Of a stretch of 64,000 bases of DNA, positions 30,418 to 59,178 are shown one piece after another. The number at the start of each line of letters is the position of its first letter. Positions within the stretch are counted from its first letter, which is position 1. Both the position numbers and the translations under genes were made by a program. The stretch is from Azolla caroliniana (taxonomy: Eukaryota; Plantae; Polypodiophyta): NCBI GenBank assembly GCA_043228905.1, contig JBHGNT010000012.1, forward strand, positions 9,300,001 through 9,364,000, written 5' to 3'. The notes under the pieces were generated by a model that worked only from the letters and a program-made list of their open reading frames with translations, made no database searches and had not been told where the DNA came from.

Positions 30418-30487
30418 GTCCGTTCATTCCTCGATTTTTAATGATTTTTTTTTTTTTTTTTTTTTTTTTAAATGACGGTGTGTGCTC

Positions 30488-33400
30488 TTACACATCCGTA
30501 GGTCCCTTCGGACCCTTACCGTTTTCCTTACGGGTTGCCGTGCCTTCCTTCGCCTCTGCTACGGGTTCCCCGTCGTCTTTTTCTTCTATGCGTACCGTTC
30601 CCGGTATAGTGCCGGTGGGCTGCATAAACGGGTTATTTGGCATTGGTCCTTTATAGGGCTTTAGTCTAAATCCGTTGACCCACTTGCCTAGTACTTCACC
30701 GGCAAGTGTCCCTAACTGATAGGACCTGTTGTATTCCCGTGTCAGCCAATACGGGCCTGTCCATCTAAACCGGAGTTTACCCGGCATCTTGCCCATCCTC
30801 GTTTGGAATACCAGCACCGGCTTTCCGATTTCAAACATCTTTTCATTACCTTTCCGGTGACGGTCAACGAACGCTTTCCGTCGTCGTTGCTCCAGTTCCA
30901 AGTGTAGGATGCTGGCCAGCCGTTGCTCCTCCAGTTCGCATAGTGCTGCTAGCCGCATTTCCTCCGACTCCTTTTCATTCAGCCGTTCCCGTAGTTGGAT
31001 CCGTAAGCTTGGTACCTGAAATTCCACCGGCATGACCGCCTCTAAGCCGAACGCTAGCCGGAACGGCGTTGTCCGGATACTTGTTTTGTATGCCGTTCGG
31101 TACGCCCATAGCGCGCTATGGAGCTTTGTATCCCAGTCCGTCCGGTTTTCATTGACGATTTTGCGGAGAATGTTCTGGAGCGTTTTGTTGGTTGACTCTG
31201 CTAACCCGTTCGCTTGTGGGTAGTACGGTGTGCTCCGTTTATGGATCACGGCATAGAACGTTGTTAAGCTTTCCACTACCTGGCCGAGGAAGTGCCCTCC
31301 TTGGTCGCTGATTAATTCAATCGGACATCCATATCGGCACCAAATGTTCTCGTACAGGAATTTTGTTGTGGATGACGCGGTATTGTCTCTCAAGGCCTTA
31401 GCCTCCACCCATTTAGTGCAATAATCTGTTGCCACGATGACATAACGATTACCCGTTCTCATTGCCGGTGGCTTGAACGGTCCGACAAAATCCAACCCCC
31501 ACTTCTGGAATGGCTCTAGTGGAAGTACCGGTTGGTGTGGCATCCGTGCTTGCTCCGTCGGCTGGCCCATTCGTTGGCATAGGTCACATTCCTTAGCATA
31601 CTTGACGGCGTCTTTTAACGTCGTGGGCCACCATAAGCCGCTCTGCCATACTTTCCTTGCCGTCGCTTCCCCGGCATAGTGTCCTCCGACAACCCCACAG
31701 TGTGCTTCCCGTAAGATTACTTGTTTCTCGTCACTACGGACTGCCCGTCTCCATATTCCATCTGCTCCTTTGTGGTAGAGAGTGTCCCGTAACAGACAGA
31801 AATTGCGGCTCTGTACCGCCAGTCGTTTCCTCTCGTCCCGGTTCATTTCCTCCGGTGGCAGGCCCGTGCTTAGGAACTGGTGCATGTTTGTCAGCCACCT
31901 ATCTTCTGATGCCACCGTGTCGTCCGCTGCCGTTTCCGGGGTGATACGGAATAACTCTGCGTCCGGGAATTCATCCGATACTCCGTCGCCTGATTCTCCG
32001 GACTCTAACCGGCTCAAGTAGTCTGCTACGGCATGCTGGATACCGGGCCGGTGGAAAATCTCGAATTCGAACTCCTGCAACAGCAAGGTCCAACGGGCCA
32101 ACTTACCGGTCAAGGACGCCTTGGATACTAAGTACAGGAGCGCCGAGTGATCCACATGGAAGGAGAACTTCCTTCCCAATAGGTAATGACGAAACTTTGT
32201 TACACTGTAGATCATGCCCAGGGCCTCCCGTTCCGTCGTTGAATAGTTCTTCTCTGCTTGGGACAGCTTCCGGCTGGCGTAATATACCGGTTGGTACCAT
32301 TTAGGCTCCGTAAGTTGCATTAAGGCGCTGCCGATAGCGATGTCGGAAGCGTCAACGAACACATGAAATTCCTTGCTCCAATCCGGAGGCTGCACGACGG
32401 GTGCTTGCGACAAAAGTACCTTCAGGGCATTGTATGCCTTATCCTCCGTATCCGTCCATTGGAACGGTGTCCGATGTACCGCGGTGTGTAATGGTGTAGC
32501 CAAGTCAGCCAAGTGACGGAGCATCCGGCTGTGCCACCGGATCTGTCCTAAGAATCGGCTTAGTGCTTTGGCCGTTTTCGGCGCCGGTGCCCCTAGTATC
32601 GCGTTTACTTTGTCCGGGTCGACCGCAATGCCCTCCTTACTTACAATGTGTCCCAGTAAGATTCCACTTGAAACCCCAAAGATGCATTTTGCTGGGTTTA
32701 AGCTTAGCCGGTATAACCTACATTTTTCAAGGCATAACCGTAGGTGCTGCAAATGGTCTTTTCCCCGGCTATAGACTGCAAAATCATCCAGGAAAACCTG
32801 CATGAAGGCAGGAATGTATTCGCCGAAGATCTCCATGATGATTCGCTGGAAAGTTGTTGGTGCCGTTTTAGGCCGAACATCATTACTTCGGCCACAAACA
32901 CCCCCCATTCGGTGACGAACGCTGTCTTCTCCTGGTCGTCAGGGTGCATCCGGATTTGATTGTATCCGCTGAACCCGTCTAAAAAACTATAAACTTCATG
33001 GCCGGCGACGGCATCCAGTACTCCATCCGTGAACGGAAGAGGGAATGCATCCGTAATTGTGGCTGCATTTAGTTTCCTGTAATCTACACACACGCGGATT
33101 TTACCGTTCTTCTTTGGGACGACGACGATGGGGCTCAGCCACGTCGCTTTCTTTACCGGCCGGATGAAGCCCACTCTCAGGAGTTTGTCGATTTCCTCCT
33201 TCACTTTGGTGGCGTAGTTGGGGTTCATTCGGTATCGTCTTTGCGCCACTGGTTTCGCGTCCTTGCCTAAGTGGATCTGATGCTGATATAATTGAGGGTC
33301 CAGCCCTCGCATGTCTTCGTATGACCAGGCGAATACGTCGCGAAACTCCGTGAGAAGTTTGATCATCGCCGCTTTATCTTCTGGCTTCATTTCTTTGGCG

Positions 33401-36362
33401 ATGTGTACCGGCTTTGATTCGTCCTTACTTCCTAGGTTCACTTCGTCGAGCTGGGATGTTTTTACCCGTTGGGAAACGGCCATTTCCCGTTCCAACGCTT
33501 CCTGTGCCTGCCGTAATTCCCGAATCGAATCTTTGTCTGGTTCGGCTTCGGTGTCGTCCCGCTGCGGCAAGTATGGCGCTACGGCTTCAGCTACGTCAAT
33601 CTCGAAGAGTGGTACGATCTTCGGGTGTTCCTCCAAGTACTGGGCTTCTTCGTCGTCTGCCAACCCTTCAAGCATGTTCACGCATTCCGCATACAGTGGT
33701 GTGCATTCCTTACCGTTGCTCGTCCGTGGTTGTGTCGGTACCCGGACCTTGGCTTTTCCGCGCCGGAAGGTAATCATATTTTTCCGCCAATTTTGCTTGA
33801 TGTGTGTTGTTTTCAACCATGGTCTGCCCAGCAACAGTGGGTACGCGCCTTGCGCCTGTAGCTGCAGCACTACAGCCGAGATGTGAAATGTGTGACCTCC
33901 TATGGTGACCTCCAATTTCCGTATTAAGCCCGTCGGCCGTACAGAGCTCGTATCCGCCATCCGTAGCCAGAACGGACATGGCTCCCATTCATGTATACCC
34001 AAGGCATCACACGTGCGGAGGCTTATTACGTTCACCCCGGAACCTCCATCGATTACGGTGCCGGGAAGTTCGTGCCCTTTGACAATAGCTGTAATCACCG
34101 GACTACTAGTGTCCACCACCGTCGGTCCCTCCTCCGGATTCGAGAAGAGGACTGGTGCCGGTGGGGCTATACCGTCTGTCATGACCGTTTTTAGTCCTTC
34201 CGTAAATCGCGGCACGAGCTGCAAGAGTCTTCCTAATGGCAACGTGATCTGACATTCTTGCAGTGCTTGCCATGTCTCATTTTCTGCGTGGCTACCGCCG
34301 GCACTCCCTATGGTATTCGCCTTTTGCCGTTCCGCATCCGCGACGTTCCTTTCATTGGCTTCCTTCACCCATTCCGTCGCCTGTTTTCGTATGGCCTCTT
34401 GTGTTTCCCACTCTTTGGCCATGCCTTTCGACCGTGTGGTTACTTGCTGTAAATCCGCCACTTCCGGAACCACCATATTAACTGCTGGTCGTTTATCGTA
34501 GCTCTTTGCCGGGCACTGGTTACTGTAGTGGCCTTCCTGTTTGCAGTAGTAGCAGTACTCTTTACGGGTATTGCTGGATTCAGCATTGCTGGTAGCCGGA
34601 GTCGGTCCCGTAGTGAGTGGTGCGTTCTGTGCCGGTTGGCTCCTTGGGGTTCCATGTTCCGGGTCCCTAGGGTGACCACCTTTCTTGAAATTACGTTTCT
34701 TATTATTCTTATTTTTATTTCGGTAGTCCTGTCGTGGTGGGTCGTAAAATCGGCCGTAGTCCTCCTGGTGCCTTCGGTAACCAGGGGAATGGTCTCTGTC
34801 GTATTGCTCGTGTCGTCTGTTGGACTCCCGATAACGGTCCGATCGCTCATACCGGTCGTAGTTATCATGCCGATTCCCGTGCCGGCCATCATTCTCTTGT
34901 CTGTCTCCGTACCGGACATCCTGTGCCGGTCGGTACCGGTTCATTCTTTGCCAACGATCGTCATCTTCGTCTCGGCTGCTTCTTGGCTCGATCCGTCGGA
35001 CGGGTGGTGCTTGTCGGTTTAACAGGTTATACTCGCACCGGTCCGTTGTATGACTCTTGGATTGACAAATCACACACTGGGTTCGCATGGTGCATTCCAC
35101 TGCCGAGTGTCCGGCATTCAAGCAGATTGTGCATTGAATTGCCTGCCGGAACCGGAGATCTTCCTCGGTGGGTAGCGCCCGTTGCAGTGTTCCCAGTGTC
35201 AGCCATGAGCTTGACTTTTCCATTTCTCTGACCCGGTCAATGACCTGGTCAATGGTGCTTCCTCGAAAGTCGATTACCGTACACACCGTGCGTAACGGTT
35301 CCCGGAGTGCGTTTAAAAATATCGTCTGTAATTCCTCCTCCGGGGGTGCACGGGCAAGCTGGCTATGCATTCGTTGGAAACGGATGACGAATTGCGGAAT
35401 GCTTTCCCCTGCCTCCTGTTGGATCGTATAAAACAGGCCCACCATTGTCGTTTGGTCGACCTCCTTGTGGAAAAATTGCAAGAATTTCGCTTTTAATTCT
35501 GCAAAGGTTGTGATGGTCGCCGGGTCCTGCGTCCGCCGCCATCGTGTTGCTTTGCTGGTCCTTCCAACGTGACCCCGAATTTCGCTATCTTCGAGCGTTC
35601 TTCTTCCTCCGGTGTCATTCGCTGGGACGTGTGATTTGCTTCCCATGTCTGCTCGAAGGCATGAACATGCGCTTCCGCGTCCGGATCATCGCGATACTTT
35701 GAGTATTGGAACGGCATGTCGTCGTCCAGTATTAGGCCGCGGTTTAGTGGCGTTTGTTGATATCTTTCCGGTTTCCTCTCCGGTTCCACTTCCGGTTCTT
35801 TTGCCGGTGCTTCTTCCGGTTCCTTTTCCGGTTCTTTTTCCGGTTCTTTCACCGGCTCTTCTTCCGGTACCTTTGCCGGCTCTTTCGTTGGTGTCGGTGG
35901 CTTTGTTTCTTCCACTTCCGGTGTTGGTGGGTTGACGGCTTCCGTTTGCGGTTCCGGATAGCCCTGGTCGAACGGTTCCGGTTCTGGAGTGGGCACGGTA
36001 TCCGACCCGTCGTCCTCCGGGCCGCCGGGGGTATCGTTGCTGCTCCGGTAGTTCGTGTGCACGCTGTATCCCCCTTCGGAATCCGATTCGTAGGCTGAAA
36101 AGGCTTCTGCCTCGTTTTCTCCGCTTGCCAGCGCCTCGAGGAGGCGTTCGGTTTCCCGGAGACTACTTAGACTGCTTCCGTCGTCCTGGTCGCGAGTTTG
36201 TTGTAACCGAAGAGATTCCTCCGTGACTCTCCGGATCTCGTTGGAGAACGAACGATCCGAGCGAATTTCGTGCGCTGCTTGCTGGAAAGTCTCACGCCGT
36301 CTTTGTCGTTCGGCGAGGCGTCGAGCTCGGTCTGTAACCAGGTCGTGCGTTGGTCTCGTCAT
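30488..36362 (-). pseudogene. pol: B gag-pol, with frameshifts at ~35550 and ~32865
   Basis: Three CCHC knuckles, PR VIDGGSGVNVI, RT FLDGFSGYNQ/FLDDF, RNase H FVDASD, IN WGLDFVGP...LISDQG...GLAES, GPY motif. No chromodomain. Confidence 0.95.
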
Positions 36363-38400
36363 CCATTAAGCCGTCGTTCGCTGCGCGAAAGCAGGAATCG
36401 TGGTCGCCAAAACTGTGTTATTCTCTGACCGGACAAGGCCTAACACAAGGTGTCACGGAGACACTTCACCAAAGGGTGATTACGGCATAGGATTAAGATT
36501 CAACGATTACACCGACTTACGTAGGTTACACGATTAGAGTGCTTTAGTTAATTACACGCGTAAGATATAACAGTAATTACAGAACGGAAATCAACACAGA
36601 AGTATAAACACCATATGCTCTATTAATTATCCGCTGCGATTACAATGGGGTCCGGGCCTTTAAATAGGTTTCCGGCCCGTAGTACAAAACGGTGCCTATC
36701 GCACCTATCCGGGATCCGTCCGGATCTGGAACGGCATACCGTTTCCAGTCCGTCCGTCCACACTATTCTTATTTACAACCATACTTAATTAATTCCTTCA
36801 CTCCGTATTTTGGACTTCTTGCCGGCCGGTAACAGATCTCTAATAACAACTCACCGGCAATGTCAGATACCATGTTCACTTCTTCCCGGCAGATCCAGGC
36901 ATGCATGAGGCACAAGGTGTTGATCTTTCGGGCTCGGGCCACGATCAAGCTTCCTTTGTTGAATTTCATGACTCCATTCTAGATGCTACCCATGTAGCCT
37001 TCATCATCCAGTCGACCGCCTGATATCAAGTTCAACCGAATCTCTAGAATGTGTAAGACATCTTTCAACCGGAGCTTGCACCCGGTTGACATAGTCAGCC
37101 ATACGTCTCCTATGCCGACAATTCGACATGTTCTCCATCCGTACACAACCATGCTTTGTAAGATGAGAAGCATTTCCGATTAGGGGCTAGATGGAACGAT
37201 GCTCCAGAGTCGACCACTGACATCATTTCGTTGCTTTCAAGATGCAACTCACTCTCCTCGGTGATTAGCAATAGTTTCTCTTCACTTGTCCCAATTGCCG
37301 ACGTTAGTTTTCTCTCCGAAATCTTCTTTAGTTCTGGATTTTCATCTCCCCCTTTGGCTTTCCGGAAGTGTCAGAAATTCTTCTAGAAGTGTCCCAACTT
37401 TTCGCAATAAAAGCAACTGGGCCTCTCTCTTGACTTCGACCTCATCCCCGACTTCTCCCGGTTCTGGGGACTTCGATTCCGGCCTCTTCCCCGGTTATTG
37501 TTGTCTTCCGTGACTAGGGATTTCGGGTTGGTTCTAAACTCCCGATCCTTCCGGCAAGCTTCTTTGTTTAGCAAACTTGACTTCACTCTCACCAGGGATA
37601 AGTTCTTTCCTTCCAGTCCGGCATTGCCCAGAGTGACAACCAACGTCTCCCAGCTATCTGGACAGGATCCAAGCAATAACATTGCCAGTACCTCGTTGGC
37701 TAACGGTACTTCGAGCAAGGTAGTTTGGTTTATCAGCCCTTGGAATTTCTTCATATGCTCTGCCATGCTGGCGTCGTCTTGATACCGGAGCCTCACTATC
37801 TTCCAGAATACCGAGACCCGATTTACGACATTCTTGTTCTCCCACATCGTGCCAATATTCTCTTAGAGCTCATTGGCCTTGTTCTCTTCATTAAAGTTAT
37901 TGTACGGGCTCATGTCGATGAAGAATCGAATGTATACCGTCATTTTCATTTACATTACCTCTGAGGTCGCGTCATCGATCTTGTCCGGTCTTTTGTCCCC
38001 AAACTGTACCAGCAGCCAAAGATCTTTTACCACTAACATGTCCCTCATCTTCGACTTCCACACTAGGTAGTTGGAGTTGGTGAGCTTGACCATGCTACTG
38101 AATGACTCTTCCATTTTTCTTTCCTTTGTTGTTTGCTCATATACTAGTTTGTACGGAATAGTGTTGGGGCACAACCGAGTCTCAATCGCTCTATGGAAGA
38201 AACATAACAGAAATAAAGATTAATGCACTTACACAGAATGAGACGACTTAGTATGTTTACGTGGAAAACCTCTTGAGGCAAAACCATGGGAGTTTGCAAA
38301 CTCTGAACAATAGGGCAGAGGTAGTATAATGTGAGACTCAAAGGCAACAACCTCGAGCTCTGTATTCGCCAGCCGGTGATTACAACAAAAAAGCTTTATG

Positions 38401-41331: not shown

Positions 41332-41704
41332 TGTCGAGGTATTCCTCGCGGATGCGTGGAATGAGGCGGGACCTCGGGGGTCCTGTACCGAAGAGCAAGA
41401 GAAAAAGGAGAAGAGACCCACTACGTGCGAGAGTAGATTCACAGGGACACGGCCCTTCGACACAAGGACGCGAGTGGGACAGCGACACAGAGAGACACGA
41501 ATGTATGTGTGTATTAACAAAGAAAAACGACAAAACACGATGTCGGATACAACCGAACAAGCCGGCGAACAGATGCCGATACCTGTTCGTAAACACACAG
41601 GAAGGAAGGAGTAGGTTGGAGGTGCTGCCAGAAGCACTCGGGCATTCCTCAGAGCAGCGCGAGCCTCCCGAAACCTGCACAAAAGGAAGCTATGGAGCTT
41701 GCGA

Positions 41705-41742
<38 letters not shown>

Positions 41743-44700
41743 CCCTCGCGCACAAACCGACAGCACTTCGTCCTCGACTCTCCGCGATCCCGCGCCCCTC
41801 CTCGTCTCCCTCCTTTTATAGGCAAGAAAGGAGCCGTTTCCCCTTTACTTCCTACCTACCGAATCTGCCTGCCTAGGATCTCCTGTGGACAACATTCGAG
41901 AAGAGTCGGTTCCTACGCTCCTGTGCACCGATTCCGCTTGTGGACGGTTTTCTTCACGACATCCGCCCCCACCTAACCGCGCATCCACCGGCCTGCGCCA
42001 AATTGAGTTGGGACGGAGAAAACCGGTCCAGCCTTCATTCCCCGCTCGTCAGTTCTTCCTCGGTTTCGGATCGTTCGTCGTCGCGGTCCAGGTCAACCGG
42101 ATCCGGCTCGTCGTCGTGACGCTTCTTGAACGCTTTGATCCGCTTCCCCACTACCGGTATCGCCATTCTCGTACCGTCGAGTTCCGCTAGATGGTACGTC
42201 CCGTTGTCGTTGGCGCTTTGTACCACGTAAGGCCCAAACCACCTTCTTGCGAACTTCCATGTCGCTCGGTGCTGGTTGTCAAGGCTGTTGTCGTAGAGTA
42301 GCACCCAGTCGCCTTCCTCGATCTTCTTCGGTCGGAGCCGGTGCGTTCGGTCGAACCGGGCTTTGTTCCTCATCCTTGCTTCCCGAAGCTTTTCCGCAGC
42401 CTGCTCCACGTCCTCCGGTCTTCGCTCGAGCTGTCGTATACGCGCCGCCAGCAGTTCCTCCCTGCTCATCTCGTCTCTCCAGTCCACGGTTGCCCACGAG
42501 GAGATCGTACGTTCCATCGGCATGACCGGCTTCTGCCCAAACATGAGTTCTGCCGGCATGAATCCGGTTACCGAACTGTGCGTAGTTCGGTCCGCCCACA
42601 ACGCGTAAGGCAGCAGCCGCAGCCAGTTCCCGACTTGACCTCCGCATGCCCGAACTAACGCCTTGACGATCGGTCCGTGTCCGCGCTCCACCTTCCCTTT
42701 CGCCTCCGGATTATACGCAGTGGTAAGCGAGAGCTTGACTCCTAGCCGGTCGAACAGCTCCTCGGCCTCTTCGGCATCCAACTCCCCGCGATCAGCCACG
42801 ATCTTCCCGACGCACCCATACCGGCATATCACGTCCTCAATCAGGAACCGACATACGGCCGAGGTCGTTTTGTTCTGAAGGGCCCGGCCTTCTACCTGGT
42901 TCGTCAGATCTTCCCGAGCCAGGACCAGATACCGCATTTGTCCTACTCCCATCGGCATCATCACCAGGTCTACCATCCATTTGAAGTGGATGGTCGGAGG
43001 GTACGTAGGGTGAAGCTCGTCCCGATGTCGGACCACGGAGTGCATCTAACAGCTCTCGCAAGTCGTCACGAACCGATTCACATCCCGGTACAGTCCCAGC
43101 CACCAGTACTTCCCCTTTATCTTCTCGAACGTGGCCCACGTTCCACGGTGTCCAGCCCAAGGGCTGTCGTGGTAGGCCGTCAGCAACTCCTCCTGTTCTT
43201 CCTTCATCGCCACCACCCGGAGCGGGACGTCGTTCCTCTTCTTCGGGTGCTTCCATAAGTATCCGTCCCGGAGAAAGAATCGGTAAGCTTTCTTCCGGAT
43301 CCGGTTGGCCTCGTCCTTCGTCCATGACGCATCCGGCGTCATTGTCCTCAAAAATCCCCCGATCTGGAGCCACTCGCCATCGTACCTGCTCTCGTCGAAG
43401 TCGTTAAGTGCCGGAGTGCTCGTCCCATCGGTTGTTACGTACGCCGCCTCGAAGAAGTTCACGCCGACTTCTTCGTCCTCTGAAACCATGCCGCCCTCGT
43501 CATCAAACCTTTATTGTCGTATTTGTCGGCCTTTACTGCCGAAACGATACCCCAGAGTTCGCGTTTAACCTGGGCGTACCCTCGCTGTCGTTCACTGAGA
43601 ACCTTCGCGCCGAATCGGATCGGGAACCGAATGCCGTTCTTGTCCTCTTGGTTGACGACCCATCCGATCCCGGTCGGACTCGTATCCACTGTTATGTATA
43701 CCGGGGTACCCTTCCCGTAGACAGCCTTCCGGAGCGCCGGTGCTGCCGCAAGAGCTTCCTTCAGCTTCCGGACTGACTCCGTGTGCTCGTCTCGCCACTC
43801 GAATTTTCGCGCTTTCTTCAGCAACCCGTATAGCGGCTCCGCAACGTGGGCGTAATGCGGGATCCATATGTAGTAGAACGTGCATGCCCCCAAGAACCTC
43901 TGAACTTCCGTAACCGAGCTACAATCGGTCTTCATCGCGGAGATGGCTTCTACCTTTGCCAGAGATGGCTTCCGGCCATAAGGTCCACATAGGTGTCCGA
44001 CCACCAGGATTTCCGATTGCCCGAAGGCTGATTTCTCCCCGGAGAAGGTGAGCCTCGCATCCTCTAGCCTCTGTAGCACCTTCTCGCAGTCGTCGATGTG
44101 TGTCGCCACGAATCGCCGGCATCCGTCCGGCCTGACTGTCTCGTCCTTCTCCTCCACCGGGCACCCCTTGATCGGGATGTCGTCTAGAAACGGCATGGTG
44201 ATGTCCGGGATGCAATCCCTCAATACCTTGTTCATTGCATTCACCATGTGGGCTACCGAGTTGGTCCCTCCTTGTGGCAGGGTACACATTCGCACTAGGC
44301 CGAGGGGGGTTCGCATCGTCGTAATGTCTCTACTCTCCACGGCTAGCTGGAACTGGTCGTACCCCGAGTACAGATCACCGACCAAGTAAATCGACCTTCC
44401 GGCGAAGGCCTCTGCGAACTCGTCTATGGTCGGTCTGATTCCTGCGTTCCGAATGGTCACTCCGTTGACCGGCTGCAGGTCCTGAATGAAGCGCAATGTT
44501 CCGTTTTTCTTTGGTACGGTAAACCATCGGTTCGAGTATGGGGCACTCGACGGTTCGAGAATGCCCATATCGACTTTTTGCCTCAATAGCTCCATCAACT
44601 TCGGGATGTGGGCTCTCGGTACTGGAATCGGCTTGAGATTCCACGGCACATGTGGTACCGTGAATATCACCATCGGCTCCACAATCGTCGGGTCTACGCA

Positions 44701-47700
44701 CCCGATCTCTTCCGGCGAAAACGCGAAAGCTTTCCCGTGCCTTCCGAGCATTCTCCGAAACCGGTCTTCCTCCGCCGGTAGTAGGAACCCGCCCCCACCG
44801 ATCTTGAGCTCCCGGAGCGTCCCGTCGGTGAAGGTGTGTCCTATGCAGGCCGGATCTCGTAAACTGGGGTCCGACGCAACCCCTCTGATTCGGGACTCGC
44901 TGCCCTCCGGTAAGGATGCCGCGACGGGCCTTACCTTCCGGTCCACAGTCTTGTACTTCGTGCTAACTCGGGCCGTCCGATCCGACCCGAGCCCCCGACT
45001 GAAGTTCGCGATGACTTTGTACATCTCTTCAGAACATACCGGAATCGTCCGGTCTTCATTAAGGTCTTCTCCGGCTACCTCCCCCAGCATTCCCAAGGTG
45101 TCGTCGAAGGAGACCGCCTCCACGGCTCCGCTGATTTCCTCGTCCGGGCTGAGAACTCCGCACGCTCGAAGTCGCACTTCCGCCCTTGTCTTTTCTCGGC
45201 CGACGATGCCGACTATCATACACCCTCCGTTGTTGGAGAAGCAGAATTTCCTACTTATCGTACAGGGTTCCTTCGGTTTCGGTTCTATCGTACAGTCGTG
45301 GGGTCTTTCCCGAGTGTCCGGGCTGTCTCGGCCCCATGCCTTGGCAGCCCTCTCTAAAAATCCTCCCGGTTCTCGCCACCGAGGGATTCGCGGTTTCTCT
45401 CGTGGTTCGGCCGCACCGTCAGAAATTGAACCGAATGGCGCCCGTCCTGGCTTTTGACCCTCGCGTAGGCCGAACCGTTGTCCAGCACCTTGGTCTCCAT
45501 TCGCGCCGCCGTGATGTACGGTTCCCCTAATATGACCGGGTGCGAGGACGTCTCCTGTACGAAGAAGTGCTGGTCAATCTCGACGTCGCCGATCTTGACT
45601 CGCACGTTCGGGCAGGCCCCGTGCAGTTCCTCGGTGGCGCGCGTCGCCGCCCGTATCTTCCACCCGTGCTTGGTGTTGATCGGCCACTTTCCCTTCTTAT
45701 AGAAGTCCATGGACATCAGGTTTATTTCCGAACCATGGTCCACCAATGCCACCACCGGTTCCTAAACATCTCCGATCTTTACCGGGGTCTCCGTGGTCGC
45801 TCGGGCCCAGTGCGGCCTTGAATAGTGGCTCTCCACCCACTCATCTTTCAGCGCCATGTCGTCGATGTGCGTCGTCCGCACCTCCACCGGTCTTTCCGGT
45901 TCCGTCTCCGTCGACAGCCTCTTCCGTTTCACCAGGTCCACAATGGAGTCGTGGAACTCCCTCTTTGCGATCCCTAGCACCTCTCGCAATGACAGCTCCA
46001 CTTTGCTGTCGAGGATCCGTTCTTCTAGGACCTTTCGTAGGTCCGTAGTCCTTTCTATTTCCGTCCCCAGTCGGTATCCGCCCTTCCTGGGGTTATCTTG
46101 CGCGCTGGACCCACCGGCATCGTTCCGTCGTTGCCCGAATCGGGTCTCGTACCGTTGTGAGGGCCCGGCCGCTCCGGCTTTCCCCACTCGTTTGTCTTCT
46201 ACCAGAGCCTCGTAGTTCCGGCAGGCGGCTTCTACGAAGCCCGTCTTCTCCTCGACCGGATCACTCCACCCAGTTATTTCCCGGACCCGTCTCTCAGCGC
46301 GGTCCGTTTCATCTTTCCTTAGCCGTGCGCCGGCAAGACCTTCCAGCATTGCCAACCAGAATCCGTCTTTGCCCTCTGTTCGGGCCTCGCTGCCCCCGAC
46401 CCGAATTCCGGCCGACGCCGAGTAGTGGATGGCCTCTACGTGTCGGGCCGCTGCCTCTTCCATCAGTCTCTTCATACCTCCTCGCCCGTCGTTTCGGTTC
46501 AGGGCCTCCTGGTGTCGCCGGCGTGCACCCGGCCTTCCCACAGGTACACCACCCGGTTCCTCAACGCCTCTGCGAAATCGCCGCAGTCCTTCCGAATGTG
46601 GCCGACCTCGCCGCACCACATGCGCCTGTTCCCCGCTGTCAGCCGTCCGTCACAAGCCGGTTCGCCGCCTTCCCTTCGAGTCTGGGCGATCTGGAGATCC
46701 TTTATCGCCCGCGTCAACTCCTCCAGCGCTGCTCCTCCGGACGAGCCATTGACCATGCCAGTCGAAGCCGGACCAGTTTCGAGCCATTCCCGGGTTTCTT
46801 CCCTTCGCACTTGCGGTGCCGGTTCAAGCCTCCTTGCTGTGACAGAGCCCGCACCGGCCGCCCCGTTGTCAGCCCATTCTCGCCGTTTGTCGAAACGGCC
46901 ACAGACTCTCTTAACCGCAGCCCAGTCGGTTGTCAGCCCGTCTTCGGTTTCCACCAAGGAGCCGACTTGATCTCTGTCCCGCTCGTCCACCGACTTGACG
47001 AACAATAGGACCCGGCTCGTATCCAGAACGGTTCGGTCAAGCGCCGAAAGGCGCGCAAAGCGTTCTTCGAACTCCCGGAGGAGTGCCGACACCCATTCCA
47101 TGAAGTCCCGTTTCGAAAGCCGGAGCGCGTCGTCCAGCCCGTATTTTTCTAGGAGTCGGCCTTCGAACTCTTCCCAGGTATGGCTCTCCGCCCGCACCTC
47201 GAGCACCTCCGCATGGATGCTCGGCATCACCACTCGAGGAAACCCGGCAAGACGCCTCTCTTCCGGAATGTCCCGCATCAGCATTTCTGCCCCGTAGGAC
47301 GCCAAATACTTCGTGGCATCCTTTCCGCTGAACCGGCCGATCGTACCAACGACCGCCTCAATGGCTCTGTCGAGGGCGCCGGTGCCCTCGCGTGCACTCA
47401 ATATCCGATCCACGGCCGAAGCCATGGCCTCTACAAGATCCGACCCCTTCATCTTCTGCTCTTCTGCCGCCTCCTTCACGTCGGGTTCACCAAAGATGTC
47501 GAGGTATTCCTCGCGGATGCGTGGAATGAGGCGGGACCTCGGGGGTCCTGTACCGAAGAGCAAGAGAAAAAGGAGAAGAGACCCACTACGTGCGAGAGTA
47601 GATTCACAGGGACACGGCCCTTCGACACAAGAACGCGAGTGGGACAGCGACACAGAGAGACACGAATGTATGTGTGTATTAACAAAGACAAACGACAAAA

Positions 47701-47869
47701 CACGAAGTCGGATAAAACCGAACAGGCCGGCGAACAGATGTCGATACCTGTTCGTAAACACACAGGAAGGAAGGAGTAGGTTGGAGGTGCTGCCGGAAGC
47801 ACTCGGGTATTCCTCAGAGCAGCGCGAGCCTCCCGAAACCTGCACAGAAGGAAGCTATGGAGCTTGCGA

Positions 47870-47903
<34 letters not shown>

Positions 47904-48122
47904 CCCTCGCGCACAAACCGATAGCACTTCGTCCTCGACTCTCCGCGATCCCTCGCCCCTCCTCGTCTCCCTCCTTTTATAGGCAAGGAAGGAGCCGTTT
48001 CCCCTTTACTTCCTACCTACCGAATCTGCCTGCCTAGGATCTCCTGTGGACAACATTCGAGAAGAGCCAGTTCCTACGCTCCTGTGCACCGATTCCGCTT
48101 GTGGACGGTTTTCTTCACGACA
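41332..48122 (-). mobile_element. Gypsy element D (tRNA-Trp / DHG-protease lineage)
   Basis: LTRs 41332-41961 and 47497-48122 (TGTCG...CGACA). 4-bp TSD CCGT. PBS TGGTGAACCCGACGTGAA at 47475-47492. PPT GGTGGGGGCGGA. Confidence 0.96.
42035..47452 (-). pseudogene. pol: D gag-PR and RT-RNase H-IN, several lesions
   Basis: ALVDHGSEINLM, RT GDLYSGYDQ/PFLDDIPIKG, RNase H ITVDTSPTG (about 0.2 kb deleted at ~43510), IN HHCC and KIVADRGE...GKVER, GPY motif. Confidence 0.94.
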
Positions 48123-50147: not shown

Positions 50148-50278
50148 CTCGCAGAAACATAGAGAGACAGAAAATGAAAGAATCGAATCCAATAACAATA
50201 TAGATTACAGAGCTCGCAATGTTACAACCGGCAAGCCGGCGACAGACTCAACACAGACAAACACCTGCACTGAAATTG
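50049..50278 (-). repeat. Truncated LTR, probably the 3' LTR end of H, fused by deletion to the protease of F
   Basis: TGTCG start and AGGCGGGACCGCGGGGGCCCTG resemble the D LTR. It interrupts G at PPWGS, then switches to F coding sequence at ~50278. Confidence 0.75.
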
Positions 50279-53200
50279 CACCGTAAGGAATTGAACAGAT
50301 CTTTGATTGTCAAGGCTCTTGACTCACGCGAAGGCCGCTCCGTTATCGAACACCTTAGTCTCCATCCGGGAAGATGTGATATATGGTTGTCCTAGGATGA
50401 CGGGATGTGAAGCCGAGTCTTGCACGAAGAAGTGTTGATCCATCTCCACATCTCCGATTGTGACTTTAACATTGGGGCAAGCTCCATACAGGTCTTCCGT
50501 GGCCTTCGTTGCCGCTCGTATCTTCCATCCGTGGTTTGTGTTGATCGGCCATCTTCCTTTCTTGTAGAATTCGGTCGACATGAGGTTGATCTCCGAACCA
50601 TGGTCAATCAAGGCTACCACGGTCTCCTTCTTCTCTCCGATCTTCACCGGCGTCTCCGTTGTCGCTCTTGCCCAATGAGGCCAAGAGTAATGGATGTCCG
50701 CCATCACTTCTTCTTCCTCCTCCTCTTCGGATCTTGCCATGGTTATGGCACTTGTTTTCACCTCTTCTTCATCCGATTGTTGCCACTTCCGCTTAATCAA
50801 GTCCACGATAGTATCGTGGAACTCCTTCTTAGCGATCCCAAGTAGCTCTCTCAAAGTAAGGTCGACATGACTGTCTAAAACCTTCTCCTCAAGGACCTTC
50901 CGCAAGTTGGTTGTTTGTTCTATGTCCGACCTTAGCTTGTAAGTCGGCGCCACTCGTTCCTTTCCTTTCTTCACAGATTCATCGACTTCCATCCGAGAAG
51001 GTTGGCTCGATCCACCGGGCTTCATGCTTGTTTCTCCTATCTCTTTTCGTGGCGTAGGTTGGGCTTGTCCTTCTTTCCCTTCATTCCTTGTATTGTGACG
51101 CTTTGAGATGCCATCTTCTTCACCGGTTCTTTTCCTCTTCTCTTCGACAAGAGCCTCATAGTTGTCGCACACAACCTCCGCAAAGCTTGTGTTATCGTCG
51201 ACTGGATCCGACCATCCAGTTACTCGTCGCACATTCCAATCAGCATGTTTGAGATCCTCCAAATCCATTTTTCCTTTCTTTTCACACTCGAATACCGTTG
51301 GCCAAAACCCAATTCCCGGCTTGATCGTCTTTAGATTCTCTCTTCCGACTCGTATTCCCGCCGATGTGGCGTAGTGCATGGCTTCCACATGCCTTGCATC
51401 TTCCTCTTCCATGATCTTTTTCAGCCCGCCTCTTCCAAAGTTCACTCGTAGCGGCTTTCGGGTCTCGCTCGAGTGAATCATGTTGCCGTCCAAATAGACG
51501 ACATTCTTGCGAATCGCGTCTTGCAAGTCAGTGCACTCCCTTCGTGAGTGCTCGAAGTTGTCGCACCACACACATCTATATGCTTCTTTTCCCTTTGGCC
51601 CACGTCGACCTAAGTTGGCCAACGATACCGCTTCAAACTTCTTGGAGGGCTCTTCGATTATAGATTCCTCCATCGCTTTCTTGTCGACATTGTTGATTGG
51701 CTTGTTAGACTCAATCGTCACAGGTGCATTCCTCCTCCATGATTGTGGATTCTCCATATCAGTTTCCTCTTGCCATTGTCGACGCTTATCAAGACGGCTA
51801 CAAGCCTTCTTCACCGCCGCCTAGTCCGCCACCAAGCCATTTGGTTGTGTTTCATCCTCCAAAAAGTTACCCAATTCACGCCGATCTTTGGCATCCACTG
51901 CCTTCAGGAATAGTAGGACTTTATCTCCATCGAGAACTCGTTGATCAACACTCGGAAGTCGGTTATACTTCTGGTCGAATTCGACATATACTCCAGACGC
52001 ACACATATTCTTCCCTTTCTTCTTGATCCAAGACATTAGCATATGTCGAGTCATCCGTGATGCGTCTTCAAGCATGTATTCGGCGAGAAGCGCCTTTTCG
52101 AACTCCGCCCAAGTTGCATGATCGCTTTGGATCTCCATGATGCGCTCGCGGATCTGTGGTTCCACCACACGTTTGAAGCTAGAAATTTGTTTGAGATCGT
52201 TGACATCCCTTTGTTGCATCTCGTTCCGATAGGTAGCAAGAAGATCCGTGATGTTCTTGCCACCAAATCGTCCAGCTATCTCGACCGTACGATCAACAAC
52301 TTTGTCGATTAAAGCTTCTCAATCTCTCACCTTCAGCATGTATTCCACTATGGACACCATACCTTTTGTTAATTCCTCTCCTTGAGTTCCGCTTGTTGAA
52401 GCCATTGTTGCACTTGATATCCTTCCTACCGCCTCTTTCACATCGGGTTCACCACGTAATTATGTCGTGAAAATCCGTCACTATGTGCGGATCGTGAGGC
52501 GGAACCGCTGGGGTTCTTGACTAGAAGGATTTAGTGCAACACGTACAACACAAGCAAGTTTTAAGCATAAGACAAGTGGGAGAGACAAATCATTTTTTTA
52601 TTGCAAAAGAAAATCGATTCTTTATAATTTCAGAATCGTGTTAGATTGGGTTGGGTATGGAAATGAGAGATTAGTTTTTCAAAGAAAGGAGCCAACAACC
52701 ATGCAAGGAGTGGTCCGATATGAATACGAGAGATAATTTTTTACAAGAAAGCTCAAGTAAACAAAGCTAAGAGTTTGATATCAATATGTGAGATAATTTT
52801 CTTCTCGAATCCGAGAGGGAAGAAGAAAGAAGGGGGGGGGGGGGGGGGGGAAAGAAGGAAAAAAAACTAGGAGGGAAAAAATGGGACATATATCGAGCTC
52901 CTCATTGATCCTCCTCCCCAACTTTACTTTGCATGCCCACTTTTAGTCGGAAGGCCTCTATTTTTAGTTGCATGGCCTCTGCTTTTAGTCGCATGCTTCC
53001 ATTTTTAGATGCATGCCTTTTTACTTTTCGTTGCATGGCCTTGGCTTTTGGTTGCATGCGATTGTCCATATAATTCGGCCAAATGACACAATCATCCATA
53101 AAGTTTAGCCCGTGTGCAATCCATACGTGCGTCGCAACCAAACTGTAGACGCGTCAGCGCGCAAAAGTCTCGACCACGTAGTAGTGTATGCATCCACGCA

Positions 53201-53786
53201 TGCGCACGTCCCGACCGCGCCGTAGTGTACGCATCCACGCGGGCGCGCGTCCAACCCGCATCGTATACGCATCCGCGCACAAAAGTCTCGTCCGCGCCAT
53301 AGTGTACGCACGTTCGCATACACGCATCCACACCGCACATACGCGTCCGTCCGAAACATCCACGCATGCACGCGTGCACACAAACGCGTCTGCACGCTCG
53401 TCCACATAGTAGTGTACGCATCCACGCATGCGCACGTCATGTAGACGCGCGTACGCCCATAGCGTGCACACCACATAGTGTAGCCCAAGTCACCTTAAAT
53501 ATCCTATGTTCCACACATTGATAGAATGAATATGTTTTGGTTTCCCTTATATATTGTAGGTTCCAATGTTGTCCTATCTATGTGGGATATCTCACAATTT
53601 TGTCTTTTCTTTTCTTTTCTTCAAACGTCACACTCACATAACTTGATACTTGTTTATCCGTTTTATGCGTAGTAAAATATGCTATGAAGCTCTTTAACAC
53701 ATCTATCTTTCCATATCCATATATTAAGCTAATCCTAAATAATGATTTTATTAGATTTCATATCGTGTGTGAAAAACCACACGACA
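50278..53786 (-). mobile_element. Gypsy element F (same lineage as D and E): 5' LTR, PBS, gag-PR; 3' part deleted
   Basis: LTR 52463-53786. PBS 52437-52454 (tRNA-Trp, one mismatch). gag from 52405. ALIDHGSEINLM. Right flank GCGC lies inside the H integrase. Confidence 0.9.
53110..53480. repeat. CpG-rich minisatellite-like array in the F LTR
   Basis: Repeated TAGTGTACGCATCCACGC-like units. Also ~21-bp TTTTAGTTGCATGGCC repeats at 52920-53060 and a G run at ~52832-52850. Confidence 0.85.
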
Positions 53787-54781
53787 GCGCAGCTTCGCCG
53801 TCGCCCGTTCTACATCCTCCTGTCTTCGCTCGAGCTACTGGATTCCCCCCGCTAACAGCTCCTCCCAGCTCATCTCATCTCTCCAGTCCACCGTGGTCCA
53901 TGAGGAGATCGTTCGCTCCATCGGCATGACTGGCTTCTACCTGTACATCAGCTCCCCCGGCATGAACCTAGTTACTGAACTATGCGTAGTTTGGTCTGCC
54001 CACAATGCATAGGGTAGGAGCCGCGACCAATTCGCGACTTGGCCTCCGCATGCCGGTACCAACGCCTTTACGATTGGCCCGTGTCCGCGTTCTACCTTCC
54101 CGTTTTCCTCCGGGTTGTACGCCCTAGTGAGGGAGAACTTGACCCCTAGCCGGTAGAACAGCTCTTCAGCTTCCTGCATGTCCAGCTCCCCTCAATCTGC
54201 AATGATCTTCCCTACGCATCCATACCGGCACAACACCTCAATCAGGAATCAGCACACCGCCGCAGTCATCTTATTCTGCAATGCATGGCACTCCATTTGG
54301 TTCGTCAAGACTTCTCGCGCTGTCGTGAAGATCCGTCACTACGTGCGGATCATGAGGCGGAACCGCCGGGGTTCTGGACCGGAAGGATTCAAAATCGGTA
54401 CAAGCTTTGGCGCAAGCTTTAGCAAGAAAGTACTTAAGATAGATTGGGAAAGAGAGAAGTTGAGATTACACGATTGAGAGAGATTGATTGAACTTTTAAC
54501 TTTAGATTTAAGAAACAAGTTACACAATCAATTTGATAACGAATTTCTTCCTCTTAATTTTCATAAAAAAAAACCGTGTTTTTTCTCCTCCCCCTTCCCT
54601 CTTTTATAGATGCTCTCATGCATATGATGCATGTGAGGGTACAAGTCATGCATAAATTGCATGTTTGCCATTTGGCGCTTATGTATTACATGTGGTGCAT
54701 GATAACCATGTCACTCATTTTAGCTCTCATGTATGAGAATTTACATGTAAAAGTACAATGATAGAAATATAATTTCAACTA

Positions 54782-54853
54782 CATAGCATGGCTTAATGGT
54801 AAGCCAATTGACTCCTAACTTGGAGGTGCAAGGTTCGAATCCTTACTTGCCCT
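54782..54853 (+). promoter_or_regulatory. tRNA-like Pol III type-2 promoter inside the E LTR; second copy at ~59701-59772
   Basis: A box TGGCTTAATGG at 54789, D stem GCTT/AAGC, loop CTCCTAA, B box GGTTCGAATCC at 54832 with T stem AAGG/CCTT. Confidence 0.72.
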
Positions 54854-55482
54854 TCTTGTATATGTAAATATGTATATATATTTATATATTTATTTATCTA
54901 GTCGCCGGTTACCGGTGCCTCGCCGGATACCGGTGCTGCCGCCGGATGTCGTCGCCGGTTACCGGTGCCGCCGCTGGATGCCGTCGCCGAATTGCCGCCA
55001 GATCACCGGCTCCATTGCCGGTCCGGTTTTGGTTGGCCAAAACCCTTTACGAGTAGCTAGCCCACCTCCACTCTTAGTTCAAGTTACCTTGAACTCTCTA
55101 TGCTCCACACATAGACACAAAGATAATATTTTTTGCTCCACCTTATATATGATGAGAGCTGTATTTGTCGTGCCTATGTGGGATATCTCACAATTTTCTC
55201 TTTTCCTTTCACAAACTTTATACCCTCATATCTTGACATTTAGTTGTCTGTTTCTCGTGTAATAAAGTGCATTTGAAACCTCCATCATTTTGTACTTAGA
55301 TATTAAATTTATTTAAAATGTTATCTTCACAATTATTGTACTATGTGATTGATACTCGATTTCGTACGTTTTATGGGATTTTCACACTATTGCCGAAAAT
55401 CTTCACGACATCCACCCCCACCAAACCGCACGTCCTCCGGTACGTGCCAAGAAGAGAGAAAGTGAGATTTCGGCTGCGATGA

Positions 55483-56985
55483 TCAATTAGATTCCTCCAT
55501 GTCTTCATTTACATCCGCCCCATTATGTTCATCGTCGAGGTAGTCGAGGTCGGGATCCTTGTCTTGTCTTTTCTTGAAAATCTTTACTCTTTTCCCCGCA
55601 ATGGGTACGGGCTTCCGGCCGTATGCTCCACTCAAGTGACCTACCACCAAGATCTCCGGTTTCCCGAATGCGGATTTTTCTCCCGAAAATGTCAAATTCG
55701 CATCTTCGAGCCTTTGAAGCACCTTCTCGCAATCTTTCATATGATCCGCAACAAACTTTCTACAACCTTCCTTATCTTTCGATTCATCTTTCTCCTCATC
55801 CGAACATCCTTTTATCGGAATATCATCCAAGAATGGCATCGTGATGTCCGGAATGCAATCTTTCAAGACTTTATTCATGGCATTCACCATATGAGCCACC
55901 GAGTTCGTTGCGCCTTGGGGTAAGGTACACATCCGCACAAGCCTGATCGGAGTCCTCATGGTTGTAATGTCCCGACTGTCGATCGCCAATTGGAATTGGT
56001 CATATCCGGAGTAGAGATCGCCAATGGAGTAGATGGACCGGCCTGCAAACGCTTCGGCAAATTCGTCCACGCTCGAACCGATTCCGGCATTTCGAATTGT
56101 CACCTTGTTGACGGGTTGAAGATCTTGGATGAATCGCAATGATCCATTCTTCTTCGGCACCGTGAACCACCTATTGGAATAAGGAGCATTCGACGGTTCT
56201 AGAATTCCCATACTCACCTTCTCCTTTAAGAGCTCGATCAGCTTCGGAAGGTGTGCTCTCGGAACCGGTATCGGTTTCAAATTCCAAGGCACATGAGGCA
56301 CCGTGAAGATCACCATCGGCTCTATAACCTTTGGGTTGGCGCATCCGATTTCTCGTGGGAAGAATGCGAAAGCCTTCCCATGTCTCTCAAGCATATCGCG
56401 AAACATTCGCTCCTCTTCAGGGAGAAGGAAATCCTCCTTTCCAACTCGTAGCTTCCCCTTCGTCTCTTTGGTGAAGACATGACCTATCTCTTAAGCTTGG
56501 ATCGTTAGCGACTTCCTTCATCTTTTGCCAACTATCTTCCGGTAGCGGAACCGCAACTGGCTTGATCTTTTTATCCACCGTTTTATATTTCGTGTTGATG
56601 TTAGCTTCCTTCATCGAGATGCCACGACGATATTCATCGATGATAGCGTACATGTTGACGGAGTTAACCGAAATCACGCGTTGGTTGTGAAGATAGCTCA
56701 AGTCCATGACGTCCTCGATTTCGCCGATGGTGTCGTTAAATGAGGCTTCTTCCATGATATGAGTCACGAACTCTCCTTCTTCTATTATGTTCTCTTCTTT
56801 CAGCATCTTCTCGAATTCTTGTATCCGGCGCTTGTACTTCTTGTCGGGTAGTACTAGTTTACATGCGCCACTAGGTGTGACACATGTTGCTTCTCCTTGC
56901 AATCCACGCACTCTTCTTTCTTGTGGGGTCTTGTGATTGCTCGGACTATTTGTGCCCCATGCTTCAATAGTCCGCTCTAAAAATC
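55483..56985 (-). pseudogene. pol: E pol remnant: RT fused to the IN C-terminus
   Basis: The -1 frame is open from the slip site. Frameshift at ~56485. RT PFLDDIPIKG, then junction GAYGRKP|VPIAGKRVKIFKKR at ~55607. Confidence 0.9.
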
Positions 56986-59178
56986 CGAGGATTCGCCTCC
57001 GAGACTATCTCGATTCCTTTCATGATTGGCTCGCACCGTTAGGAATTGGACCGATCTTTGGTTGTCAAGACTCTTTATTCGTGCGAAGGCTGCTCCATTA
57101 TCAAACACTTTGGTCTCCATCCGAGATGATGTGATATAAGGTTGCCCTAGGATGACAGGATGTGACGCCAATTCTTGTACGAAGAAGTGTTGATCCATCT
57201 CCACATCCCCGATCGTGACTTTGACATTGGGACAAGCTCCGTACAAATCCTCCGTAGACTTTGTTGCCGCGCGAATCTTCCATCCGTGGTTTGTATTGAT
57301 TGGCCATCTTCCCTTTTTGTAGAAGTCGGTTGACATGAGGTTGATCTCCGAGCCGTGGTCGATCAAGGCTACCACGGTCTCTTTCTTCTCCCCGATCTTC
57401 ACCGGCGTCTCCGTTGTCGCTCGTGCCCAATGAGGTCGAGTGTAGTGGCTGTCCACCATATCTTCATCGATTTCGTCTCTTGCCATCGTTATGGCATTCG
57501 TTTTTGCTTTTTGCGGCTTCTCTTCTTCCTCGTCCGATTGTTGTCTCTTTCTCTTTACAAGGTCCACGATCGTGTCATGGAACTCCTTCGTAATGCCAAG
57601 CAATTCCCTCAAGGACAAAGTTACGTGGCTATCAAGAACTTGTTCTTCGAGAATCTTCTTTAGGTCCGTCGTCTGCTCTATGTCCGGCCTTAGCTTATAG
57701 GTAGGTATGGTCCTTGTCCTCCGAGCGGGGTCTTCGACACCAACCTTCACGGGCCGAACCGTTTCTTCAACTCGTATGCTCGGCTCCCCTTTTCGGGTTG
57801 CTTCTCGTTCCTCCGTTTGTAAAGGTCGACTCGTCTCCGCATCGTCCTTCTTTTTCGCGTTCCTTGTTTCATGTCTTTTTGATGGCCCTTGCTCTTCTAT
57901 TCTCTTTCTCTTTTCTTCGACGAACACCTCGTGGTTGTCGCACATCACCTCTGCGAGTATGGTGTTGTCGTCCACCGGATCCAACCACCCAGTTATGCTT
58001 TGCACGCTTCGGTCCGCAAGCTCTACCTCGTTCGATGTGACTTTTCCCTTCTTCTCATATTCGAGAACGGAAGTCCAAAACTTTGCTCCCGCTCTAGCAC
58101 CTTCAGTCTTGTCTTTCCCGACTCTTATTCCGGCCGACGCAGCATAGTGCATCGCATCCACATGAGTCGCATCGGCATCCTCCATAGATTTCTTCATTCC
58201 TCCTCTTCCGAAATTCACCCGTAGGGGTCTTCTAGTCTCGCTTGAGCAGATCATGTTGTCCTCTATGTATACGATATTTTGTCGAATCACCTCTCGAAGG
58301 CTCGCACAATCCCTTCTCATGTGGTCCATGCTATCGCACCACACGCATCTAAAGGGTTCTTTTCCTTTAGGGCCCCGACGATTCATGTTGGTTAGCGTGA
58401 CCTTCTCGAACTTCTTCACTAGCTCTTCAATGATGTCCTCATCAATCTTCTTTTCTTCCACGTTACTTTGTCTTGGCGGCTCAGCTACTTTCGGCGGTCT
58501 TGCTTTCTTCGTGGTAGTCGATCCCGTCAAGTCGGTGTCATCAACCCATTGGCGACGCTTGTCGAGCCTATTGCATGCCCGCTTCACCGCTATCCAGTCC
58601 ACTACGAGCCCATTTGCTTGGGTATCATCTTCGAGAAGAGTCCCCAACTCCCGTCTATCCTTTATGTCCACGGCCTTCAAGAGGTACAAAATATTGTCCT
58701 CTTCAAGCAACACTTGATCCGTATTGGGGAGACAACTAAACATCTGGTCGAATTCGTCGTACACCCTCGAGACGCTCATCTTCTTATTCTTCTTCTCTAT
58801 CCACTTCATCAGGGCATGTCGAGTCATCCTCGTTGAGTCTTCAGTCACGAACTCCGCTAGTATCATTTTCTCGAACTCGGACCATGTTGTCTTACCTTCT
58901 TGAAGCTCGATGACGCGTCTTTGGATGTTGTTGGCGACAACTCTCTTGAAGCTTGCGATTTGACGTGCCTCGGACACGTCCCTCTGATTCATCTCCCTTC
59001 TATATGCATCAAGGAACTTCGTAACGTTCCTTCCATCGAATTGGCCCTCGAGCTCTACGACACGATCGACAGCCTTCTCCACGCTCGCGTCGTTGTCCTG
59101 AGATCTCATCATTTGCTCGACGATTAGCATCATCCTTTCGAGCTCTCCCGCTTGGTTGCTTGAGGACGCCATCTCCAA
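56977..59178 (-). CDS. gag: E Gag-protease, intact 733-aa ORF
   Basis: FDGRNVTKFL capsid motif, CVWCDSMDHMRRDC knuckle, ALIDHGSEINLM protease. Ends at the slippery site GGATTTT-TAG. Confidence 0.92.
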   Translation of the reverse strand: MEMASSSNQAGELERMMLIVEQMMRSQDNDASVEKAVDRVVELEGQFDGRNVTKFLDAYRREMNQRDVSEARQIASFKRVVANNIQRRVIELQEGKTTWSEFEKMILAEFVTEDSTRMTRHALMKWIEKKNKKMSVSRVYDEFDQMFSCLPNTDQVLLEEDNILYLLKAVDIKDRRELGTLLEDDTQANGLVVDWIAVKRACNRLDKRRQWVDDTDLTGSTTTKKARPPKVAEPPRQSNVEEKKIDEDIIEELVKKFEKVTLTNMNRRGPKGKEPFRCVWCDSMDHMRRDCASLREVIRQNIVYIEDNMICSSETRRPLRVNFGRGGMKKSMEDADATHVDAMHYAASAGIRVGKDKTEGARAGAKFWTSVLEYEKKGKVTSNEVELADRSVQSITGWLDPVDDNTILAEVMCDNHEVFVEEKRKRIEEQGPSKRHETRNAKKKDDAETSRPLQTEEREATRKGEPSIRVEETVRPVKVGVEDPARRTRTIPTYKLRPDIEQTTDLKKILEEQVLDSHVTLSLRELLGITKEFHDTIVDLVKRKRQQSDEEEEKPQKAKTNAITMARDEIDEDMVDSHYTRPHWARATTETPVKIGEKKETVVALIDHGSEINLMSTDFYKKGRWPINTNHGWKIRAATKSTEDLYGACPNVKVTIGDVEMDQHFFVQELASHPVILGQPYITSSRMETKVFDNGAAFARIKSLDNQRSVQFLTVRANHERNRDSLGGESSDF

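Follow-up and report, generated by a model that had tools for sequence, protein, structure and literature searches.

Three Ty3/Gypsy LTR retrotransposons (D, E, and H) on the minus strand of a 64,000-nucleotide stretch of the Azolla caroliniana genome (the window; contig JBHGNT010000012.1, positions 9,300,001 to 9,364,000) raise the question of how their polymerase is made, as in each of them the ORF that bears the protease (PR) ends with GAT TTT TAG (DF*) and the reverse transcriptase (RT) is encoded in another frame. All three are decayed. Element D runs from LTR to LTR over 41332-48122 (6.8 kb), with LTRs at 47497-48122 and 41332-41961 that are about 96.6% alike and a primer binding site (PBS) at 47476-47492. 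Its PR domain (45354-45761), which contains a D-H-G motif, forms the end of ORF1, and gag is broken 5′ of this domain by a stop and a frame break. ORF2 of D (43459-45359) lies in the −1 frame and consists of a leader of ~180 codons, RT (with an FLDD motif), and RNase H (RH), with a break before the integrase (42035-43510). Element E (54321-60286 from LTR to LTR, 6.0 kb with its deletion) has inserted into the integrase of H; its pol carries breaks and an internal deletion, whereas its ORF1 (56977-59172) is an intact Gag-PR reading frame of 731 amino acids, with Pfam identifying DUF4100 in ORF1. The target duplications found on both flanks, ACGG for D and GCGC for E, fit a 4-bp NCGN pattern. 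A fourth copy of the family (5′ LTR, gag, and PR; 50278-53786, minus strand) is truncated ~60 nt before the junction and therefore lacks the cassette described below. E and this truncated copy sit at GCGC sites ~530 bp apart inside the integrase of H (53786-60287), a nested insertion into kin.

The original prediction had proposed that Pol of these elements is reached by a −1 ribosomal frameshift at the end of ORF1, using a slippery heptamer followed by a stem. The sequence GGATTTTTAGAG is matched exactly three times in the window (45352-45363, 56975-56986, and 63213-63224), each time on the minus strand, so that the G_GAT_TTT_TAG named as the end of the Gag-PR ORF is found at all three sites. 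In D (all coordinates on the minus strand), the heptamer G_GAU_UUU occupies 45357-45363 in the ORF1 (0) frame, and the UAG stop of ORF1 (45354-45356) makes up the first half of a 6-nt spacer. The spacer leads into stem 1 (5′ arm at 45343-45350 pairing with the 3′ arm at 45320-45327, with 7/8 pairs formed in D), the loop of which holds the 5′ arm of stem 2, UGGGG (45332-45336), complementary to a downstream CCCCA (45299-45303). Similarly, the cassette of E (56924-56986) comprises the heptamer at 56980-56986, the stop at 56977-56979, stem 1 at 56966-56973/56943-56950, and stem 2 at 56955-56959/56924-56928, and that of H (63160-63224) has the heptamer at 63218-63224, the stop at 63215-63217, stem 1 at 63204-63211/63181-63188, and stem 2 at 63193-63197/63160-63164. 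The stems 5-6 nt past the heptamer are as first described, but they constitute only stem 1 of what is predicted, from covariation, to be an H-type pseudoknot formed by the UGGGG loop and CCCCA, which extends in D as far as 45299, beyond the limits within which the cassette had been drawn. From the heptamer, the −1 frame in D, E, and H reads GFLER(A/T)(A/I)(K/E)AWG(R/T)(D/N)SP; GFLER is a conceptual −1 translation, and tandem slippage would give a junction of D-F followed by L-E-R. That this frame is open into pol holds for D (632 codons), but in E (187 codons) and H (210 codons) it breaks where RT begins or close to that point. As D, E, and H are homologous (nucleotide identities of 77% for D/H, 71% for D/E, and 69-71% for E/H), their three cassettes are not independent. 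Furthermore, the hairpins alone are modestly stable (z −1.6 to −2.3), so the window by itself is no proof of a signal, and the case against chance rests on relatives.

These were obtained from a metagenome scan, of which the best 80 of 167 loci were used, 76 of the 80 coming from one assembly-accession series. Eight stop short of the junction, and among the other 72, examined for the heptamer, it is found in 69 (66 with the full cassette, two that are cut short, and L078, found by hand). It is absent from L050 and L069, which have no intact site, and from L065, a decayed locus of low coverage that has lost the cassette to a deletion and whose PR continues in frame into ORF2 over ~30 codons. 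Past the heptamer, the frame that stays open for at least 100 codons is −1 in 59 of the 66 full junctions and −2 in two, never frame 0, with the remaining five broken early. Where ORF2 extends over at least 900 codons (33 loci), 31 are in −1, two in −2, and none in frame. The −1 offset recurs across clades in which PR is only 60-70% identical. G_GAU_UUU_UGA and the −1 frame recur in L081, an independent locus taken from a genome bin, whose stem 1 hairpin is longer and whose stem 2 is only partial; L081:1-3841 is a member of this plant retrotransposon family within a cyanobacterial genome-bin contig, probably a contamination. In L047-L049, a look-alike heptamer is present upstream of the true site.

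The heptamer in 69 junctions (the 66 loci and the three window copies) is G_GAU_UUU in 59, G_GAU_UUC in 4, G_GUU_UUU in 3, G_GGU_UUU in 2, and G_GUU_UUC in 1; the predominant form departs from the X_XXY_YYZ consensus. The ORF1 stop follows directly in most of the 54 distinct junctions (TAG 19, TAA 17, TGA 6), the heptamer being kept while the stop varies, and in some clades it comes 1-5 codons later, as in those of L054, L067, L073, L074, and L076, where it is situated 5 codons past the heptamer, inside stem 1. Upstream, the ORF2 frame is closed by a stop at a median of 18 nt from the heptamer (3-210, n = 48; within 6 nt in 9/48), which pins the site of the shift. At the protein level, 64 of the 120 homologues listed, out of 232 found, end in DF, and 24 more end in PL or PF a few residues past DF or GF. 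Distant representatives with a D-S-G or D-T-G motif often end at or just past DF/NF: of the 87 that reach the end of the domain, 57 terminate no more than 30 residues later and 30 continue. PR and RT in a single frame, a layout that the original prediction held to speak against it, occurs in none of the 33 loci with a long ORF2 but does occur in one distant relative, the single-member P0243 (1374 amino acids), in which DUF4100, PR, RT, and RH follow each other in one frame with DF at the equivalent place. The two-ORF layout is thus not universal, and P0243 represents a lineage or a copy without the frameshift. A scan of viral contigs yielded no relatives, and Rfam holds no family matching the cassette. 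Among the matches listed for contigs of four sequencing runs aligned on E, the runs not being established as RNA, there was neither an indel at the slip site nor a joint at the junction.

Stem 1 (8 bp) lies 6 nt past the heptamer, inside the canonical range of 5-9 nt (PMC7618472), and is 97.7% paired across the 54 distinct junctions, with 6 of its 8 pairs changed on both sides. Stem 2, scored in one fixed register over the same junctions, reaches 75% pairing, and 5 of its 6 pairs have changed on both sides. Compensatory changes are thus present in both stems. For the pairing of the whole structure, 0/500 shuffles reach the observed value, and slid controls are at most 47% paired. Stem 2 measures 5-8 bp, its register differs between clades by as much as 2-3 nt, and it takes clade-specific forms (UGCGGGG/CCCCGCA, GCAGGGA/UCCUUGC, AUGAGGGU/ACCCUCAU, GCGAGA/UCUCGC, and CAAGG/CCUUG). 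In 24 clade representatives, which were picked across the tree by the analyst and scored in windows set after the structure was seen, stem 2 scores 16.0 with its own partner versus 12.9 ± 0.5 with permuted partners (0/20000), and three control windows are null. The UGGGG loop is invariant in D, E, and H, and the codon phase of CCCCA in E differs from that in D and H. Synonymous change is suppressed as well: over 19 non-independent pairs, four-fold sites diverge at 11/121 (0.09) in the cassette versus 331/780 in PR and 284/718 in RT (~0.4 each). The entire cassette comprises ~65 nt, of which a compact and local pseudoknot takes up ~52 nt.

The predicted programmed −1 recoding between PR and RT receives strong comparative support from the frame of 31 of the 33 loci with a long ORF2, the covariation of both stems, and the suppression of synonymous change. 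It is, on the basis of these sequences, very likely that the family makes its Pol through −1 frameshifting at G_GAU_UUU, with the predicted H-type pseudoknot that begins 6 nt past this site as the stimulator. Two loci (L060 and L062) would shift by −2 instead. Most ribosomes would terminate at the ORF1 stop and release Gag-PR. A minority would be halted by the pseudoknot while Asp- and Phe-tRNA occupy GAU UUU, and these tRNAs would slip to GGA UUU, upon which translation would enter Pol and yield Gag-PR-Pol. PR would then be produced at the level of Gag, and RT and integrase at a fraction of that level, consistent with the notion of abundant Gag-PR and little Pol.

L060 and L062 group together as one clade, with an SH-aLRT of 99 in a quick tree that left out L053 and L066 and had L058 out of frame. 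In each, ORF2 lies in the −2 frame and is intact, at 1152 and 1099 codons; the two ORF2s share 82% identity, and 43% of their four-fold sites differ. Both have AG_GUU_UUU as the site, a spacer of 5 nt, one base shorter than elsewhere, and both stems, and the −1 frame past the site stops after 0 codons in L060 and 5 codons in L062. At least five members of the P0024 cluster share the L060-type end of ORF1, and the junction of L060 is matched exactly and without a gap by a 444-nt contig of a further public run (X1); an assembly slip at L060 is therefore unlikely. AG_GUU_UUU is the −2/−1 site of arteriviruses (PMC7618472), and the optimal spacer for −2 shifting has been reported to be 1-2 nt shorter than that for −1 (PMC7618472; PMC3458567). 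In L060 and L062, the pseudoknot, one base nearer to AG_GUU_UUU, would accordingly drive a −2 shift. We consider it somewhat more probable than its opposite that this seed-free plant clade reaches Pol by a pseudoknot-driven shift after PR and that the L060/L062 branch switched from −1 to −2 through AG_GUU_UUU and the shorter spacer while retaining the pseudoknot, and a similar degree of belief attaches to −2 shifting itself, a reading for which DNA is available from two loci.

The same frame would be reached by a +1 shift, either at UUU_N or at the stop, and L062 has UUU_U, which permits +1 re-pairing. L060, on the other hand, would require re-pairing from UUU to UUG, the site matches the arterivirus −2/−1 sequence, and the pseudoknot is intact and displaced by one base in the direction reported to favor −2, so that a +1 shift in these two loci appears unlikely, if still worth considering. 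The −2 shift, if it occurs, would be a natural and selected case in which a pseudoknot stimulates −2 shifting to produce an essential polymerase, and would put the mRNA-tension model to an evolutionary test. This model, which relates the shift to spacer length and under which the shorter spacer of L060 and L062 is expected for −2, has so far been shown on engineered U6A constructs (PMC3458567). As the −1 and −2 sister clades differ by the slip site and one spacer base, it becomes testable on natural sequences, and the compact cassette is available in dozens of natural versions. A distant homologue from Calypogeia fissa, P0291, has an ORF1 that ends with KVFY, resembling the QVFY/QVFD of the −2 clade, and possibly represents a second −2 origin.

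A different route to Pol would be a spliced mRNA in which PR is joined to RT in frame, as in Ogre (PMC6317226), the junction being intronic. Eleven long Riccia proteins and several gene models of Physcomitrium and Adiantum do fuse PR to Pol over the junction, and a run containing AG/GT is ~80% conserved inside the 3′ arm of stem 1. The fused models, however, lack the junction and join at many differing points, and in the stretch that starts 30 nt 5′ of the heptamer and extends to the 3′ arm of stem 1, no GT exceeds 47% conservation. Moreover, the −1 frame is free of stops from the heptamer onward, with a third-position bias that is evident from codon 61 and weaker over codons 21-60, and an intron would leave the heptamer and two covarying stems unexplained. 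We read the fused plant proteins, considered at the protein level, as probable products of introns introduced by gene modeling; the frameshift cassette would explain why annotation invents introns in these elements. Splicing is, on these grounds, very improbable as the source of Pol.

Equally improbable is a fresh start of translation, by termination-reinitiation or from an internal start, with the RNA structure serving that process or packaging/dimerization. This explanation weighs most for the −2 clade, in which an AUG in the ORF2 frame is found 5 (L060) and 2 (L062) codons before AGG, and stop codons do adjoin the site in nearly all copies. Yet the two AUGs are at different positions and originate in ORF1 codons for Asp/Asn. 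Among the −1 majority, the position of the first ORF2 AUG is not conserved, ranging from codon 1 to codon 109, and in the nine junctions mentioned above a stop closes the frame no more than 6 nt upstream. Reinitiation, furthermore, needs no slippery heptamer at a fixed spacer. The last alternative, that the frame offset reflects mutational decay or an assembly error in the U run and that active elements have a single ORF, could appeal to the homopolymeric site, to the three window copies being broken elsewhere, and to the single ORF of P0243, but it is scarcely credible and already largely refuted by the frame counts, as none of the 33 loci with a long intact ORF2 is in frame 0, the identical offset recurs across divergent clades, and the run X1 contig reproduces L060 over the junction.

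D, E, and H most likely belong to the Phygy clade of Ty3/Gypsy non-chromoviruses, as judged from the NCGN target duplication and from their relatives, of which the named ones are from mosses, liverworts, and ferns (Physcomitrium, Riccia, Adiantum, and Calypogeia); in a quick protease tree, predicted P. patens proteins and L072 form a group (98). One PBS motif is common to the three window copies and 37 of 81 loci. In REXdb, Phygy has a PBS for tRNA-Trp, to which this conserved motif may correspond; a scan with the motif for the source tRNA gave six unrelated chance matches, none with a tRNA. The family may have an affinity to Ylt1 and fungal elements. Pfam searches of the window ORFs and two intact ORF2s revealed no chromodomain, archaeal-type RNase H (aRH), or extra ORF. 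The absence of these features and the 4-bp NCGN duplication are shared with Phygy as described by Neumann et al. (2019, PMC6317226). In Additional file 5 of that survey, the CDS organization of Phygy is entered as “ND” and the clade is specific to P. patens, whereas here Gag-PR overlaps RT-RH-INT in the −1 frame and relatives occur in Riccia, Calypogeia, and Adiantum. The 6.8 kb of D, and the 6.0 kb of E with its deletion, are below the Phygy range of 7.7-10 kb, which refers to P. patens copies and thus to another host (PMC6317226). The publications found to name Phygy are, judged by their titles, classification or genome papers. If correct, the proposed mechanism would replace the “not determined” under which Phygy gene expression is listed.

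Drosophila Ulysses may be a precedent for PR in ORF1, and in Rous sarcoma virus, an alpharetrovirus, PR is the last Gag domain. In Rous sarcoma virus, too, a pseudoknot accompanies a −1 shift where gag ends (PMC5009743), but this virus uses another slip site and belongs to an unrelated lineage, making the layout convergent. A separate Gag-PR ORF is already known in plants, a point missed by the original prediction: in Ogre and Retand (Tat), PR is likewise encoded with Gag and there is a break before RT, although that break consists of an in-frame stop or a spliced spacer (PMC6317226). No plant lineage in the table of the same survey has GAG-PROT overlapping RT in another frame, and Tcn1 and Selgy overlap before PR (PMC6317226). 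A 2003 survey, as summarized in a review, found only +1 arrangements in plant elements (PMC5009743). The recoding proposed here, if true, would make this a plant LTR lineage that shifts by −1 between PR and RT, a layout absent from the reference table (PMC6317226). Titles and abstract openings, in a search that took in few subscription papers and to which supplements may bear, gave no description of the cassette, and it was likewise absent from term searches in PMC7466625, PMC11871058, PMC10508981, and PMC2864245.

The heptamer itself is known from plant viruses. GGAUUUU was cited in the original prediction as the slippery site of the dianthovirus RCNMV, which is confirmed in print, and it is a tested −1 slip site in RNA2 of the umbravirus PEMV as well (PMC3111606, PMC4737148). 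PEMV also has a stop close 3′ of the site (PMC3111606, PMC4737148, PMC5009743). In RCNMV and PEMV, however, the stimulator is a stem-loop with pairing several kb away, in contrast to the local pseudoknot of ~52 nt found here. The site of L060 and L062 is shared with arterivirus nsp2, in which −2 similarly gives the long product and −1 soon stops (PMC7618472). Shifting in PRRSV involves no RNA structure and needs a CCCANCUCC motif and trans-acting proteins (PMC7618472), unlike L060 and L062, which have a pseudoknot at 5 nt and in which the −2 product would be the essential Pol. A CCCANCUCC motif 10 nt downstream without RNA structure is not what L060 and L062 contain; with a pseudoknot in place of this motif, they are therefore not members of the arterivirus type, though they may work alike.

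The assignment of the ORF1 end as PR is supported by structure prediction. The last 150 residues, modeled from 74 sequences, adopt a predicted retropepsin fold (pLDDT 89), with Ddi1 and retroviral proteases as the top Foldseek matches (E 1.6e-6). The catalytic motif reads D-H-G in 194/213 matches and D-S/T-G in 12 (window 45354-45761, 56980-57429, and 63215-63700, together with homologues), departing from the canonical D-[ST]-G with the Asp retained. It is tempting to speculate that a putative protease made at the level of Gag may tolerate, or need, the weakened D-H-G site. Two intact ORF2s contain RT, RNase H, and integrase, and no protease, according to Pfam. The catalytic motif of RT is F-L-D-D in 43/44 matches and F-I-D-D in one (window 43459-45359; L001-L081), versus Y-x-D-D.

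Apart from this family, the window contains a young LTR element of another Gypsy lineage (26936-36837; LTRs 99.3% alike), with two extra ORFs past the integrase (28954-30423 and the coiled-coil-like 27785-29005), neither of which is matched in Pfam. The regions 1-9784 and 19641-26935 hold three single-ORF Gypsy copies that are related to each other (88-96% alike), and an exact tandem duplication of 294 bp is situated there at 21388-21977. A copia fragment is present at 10935-11720.
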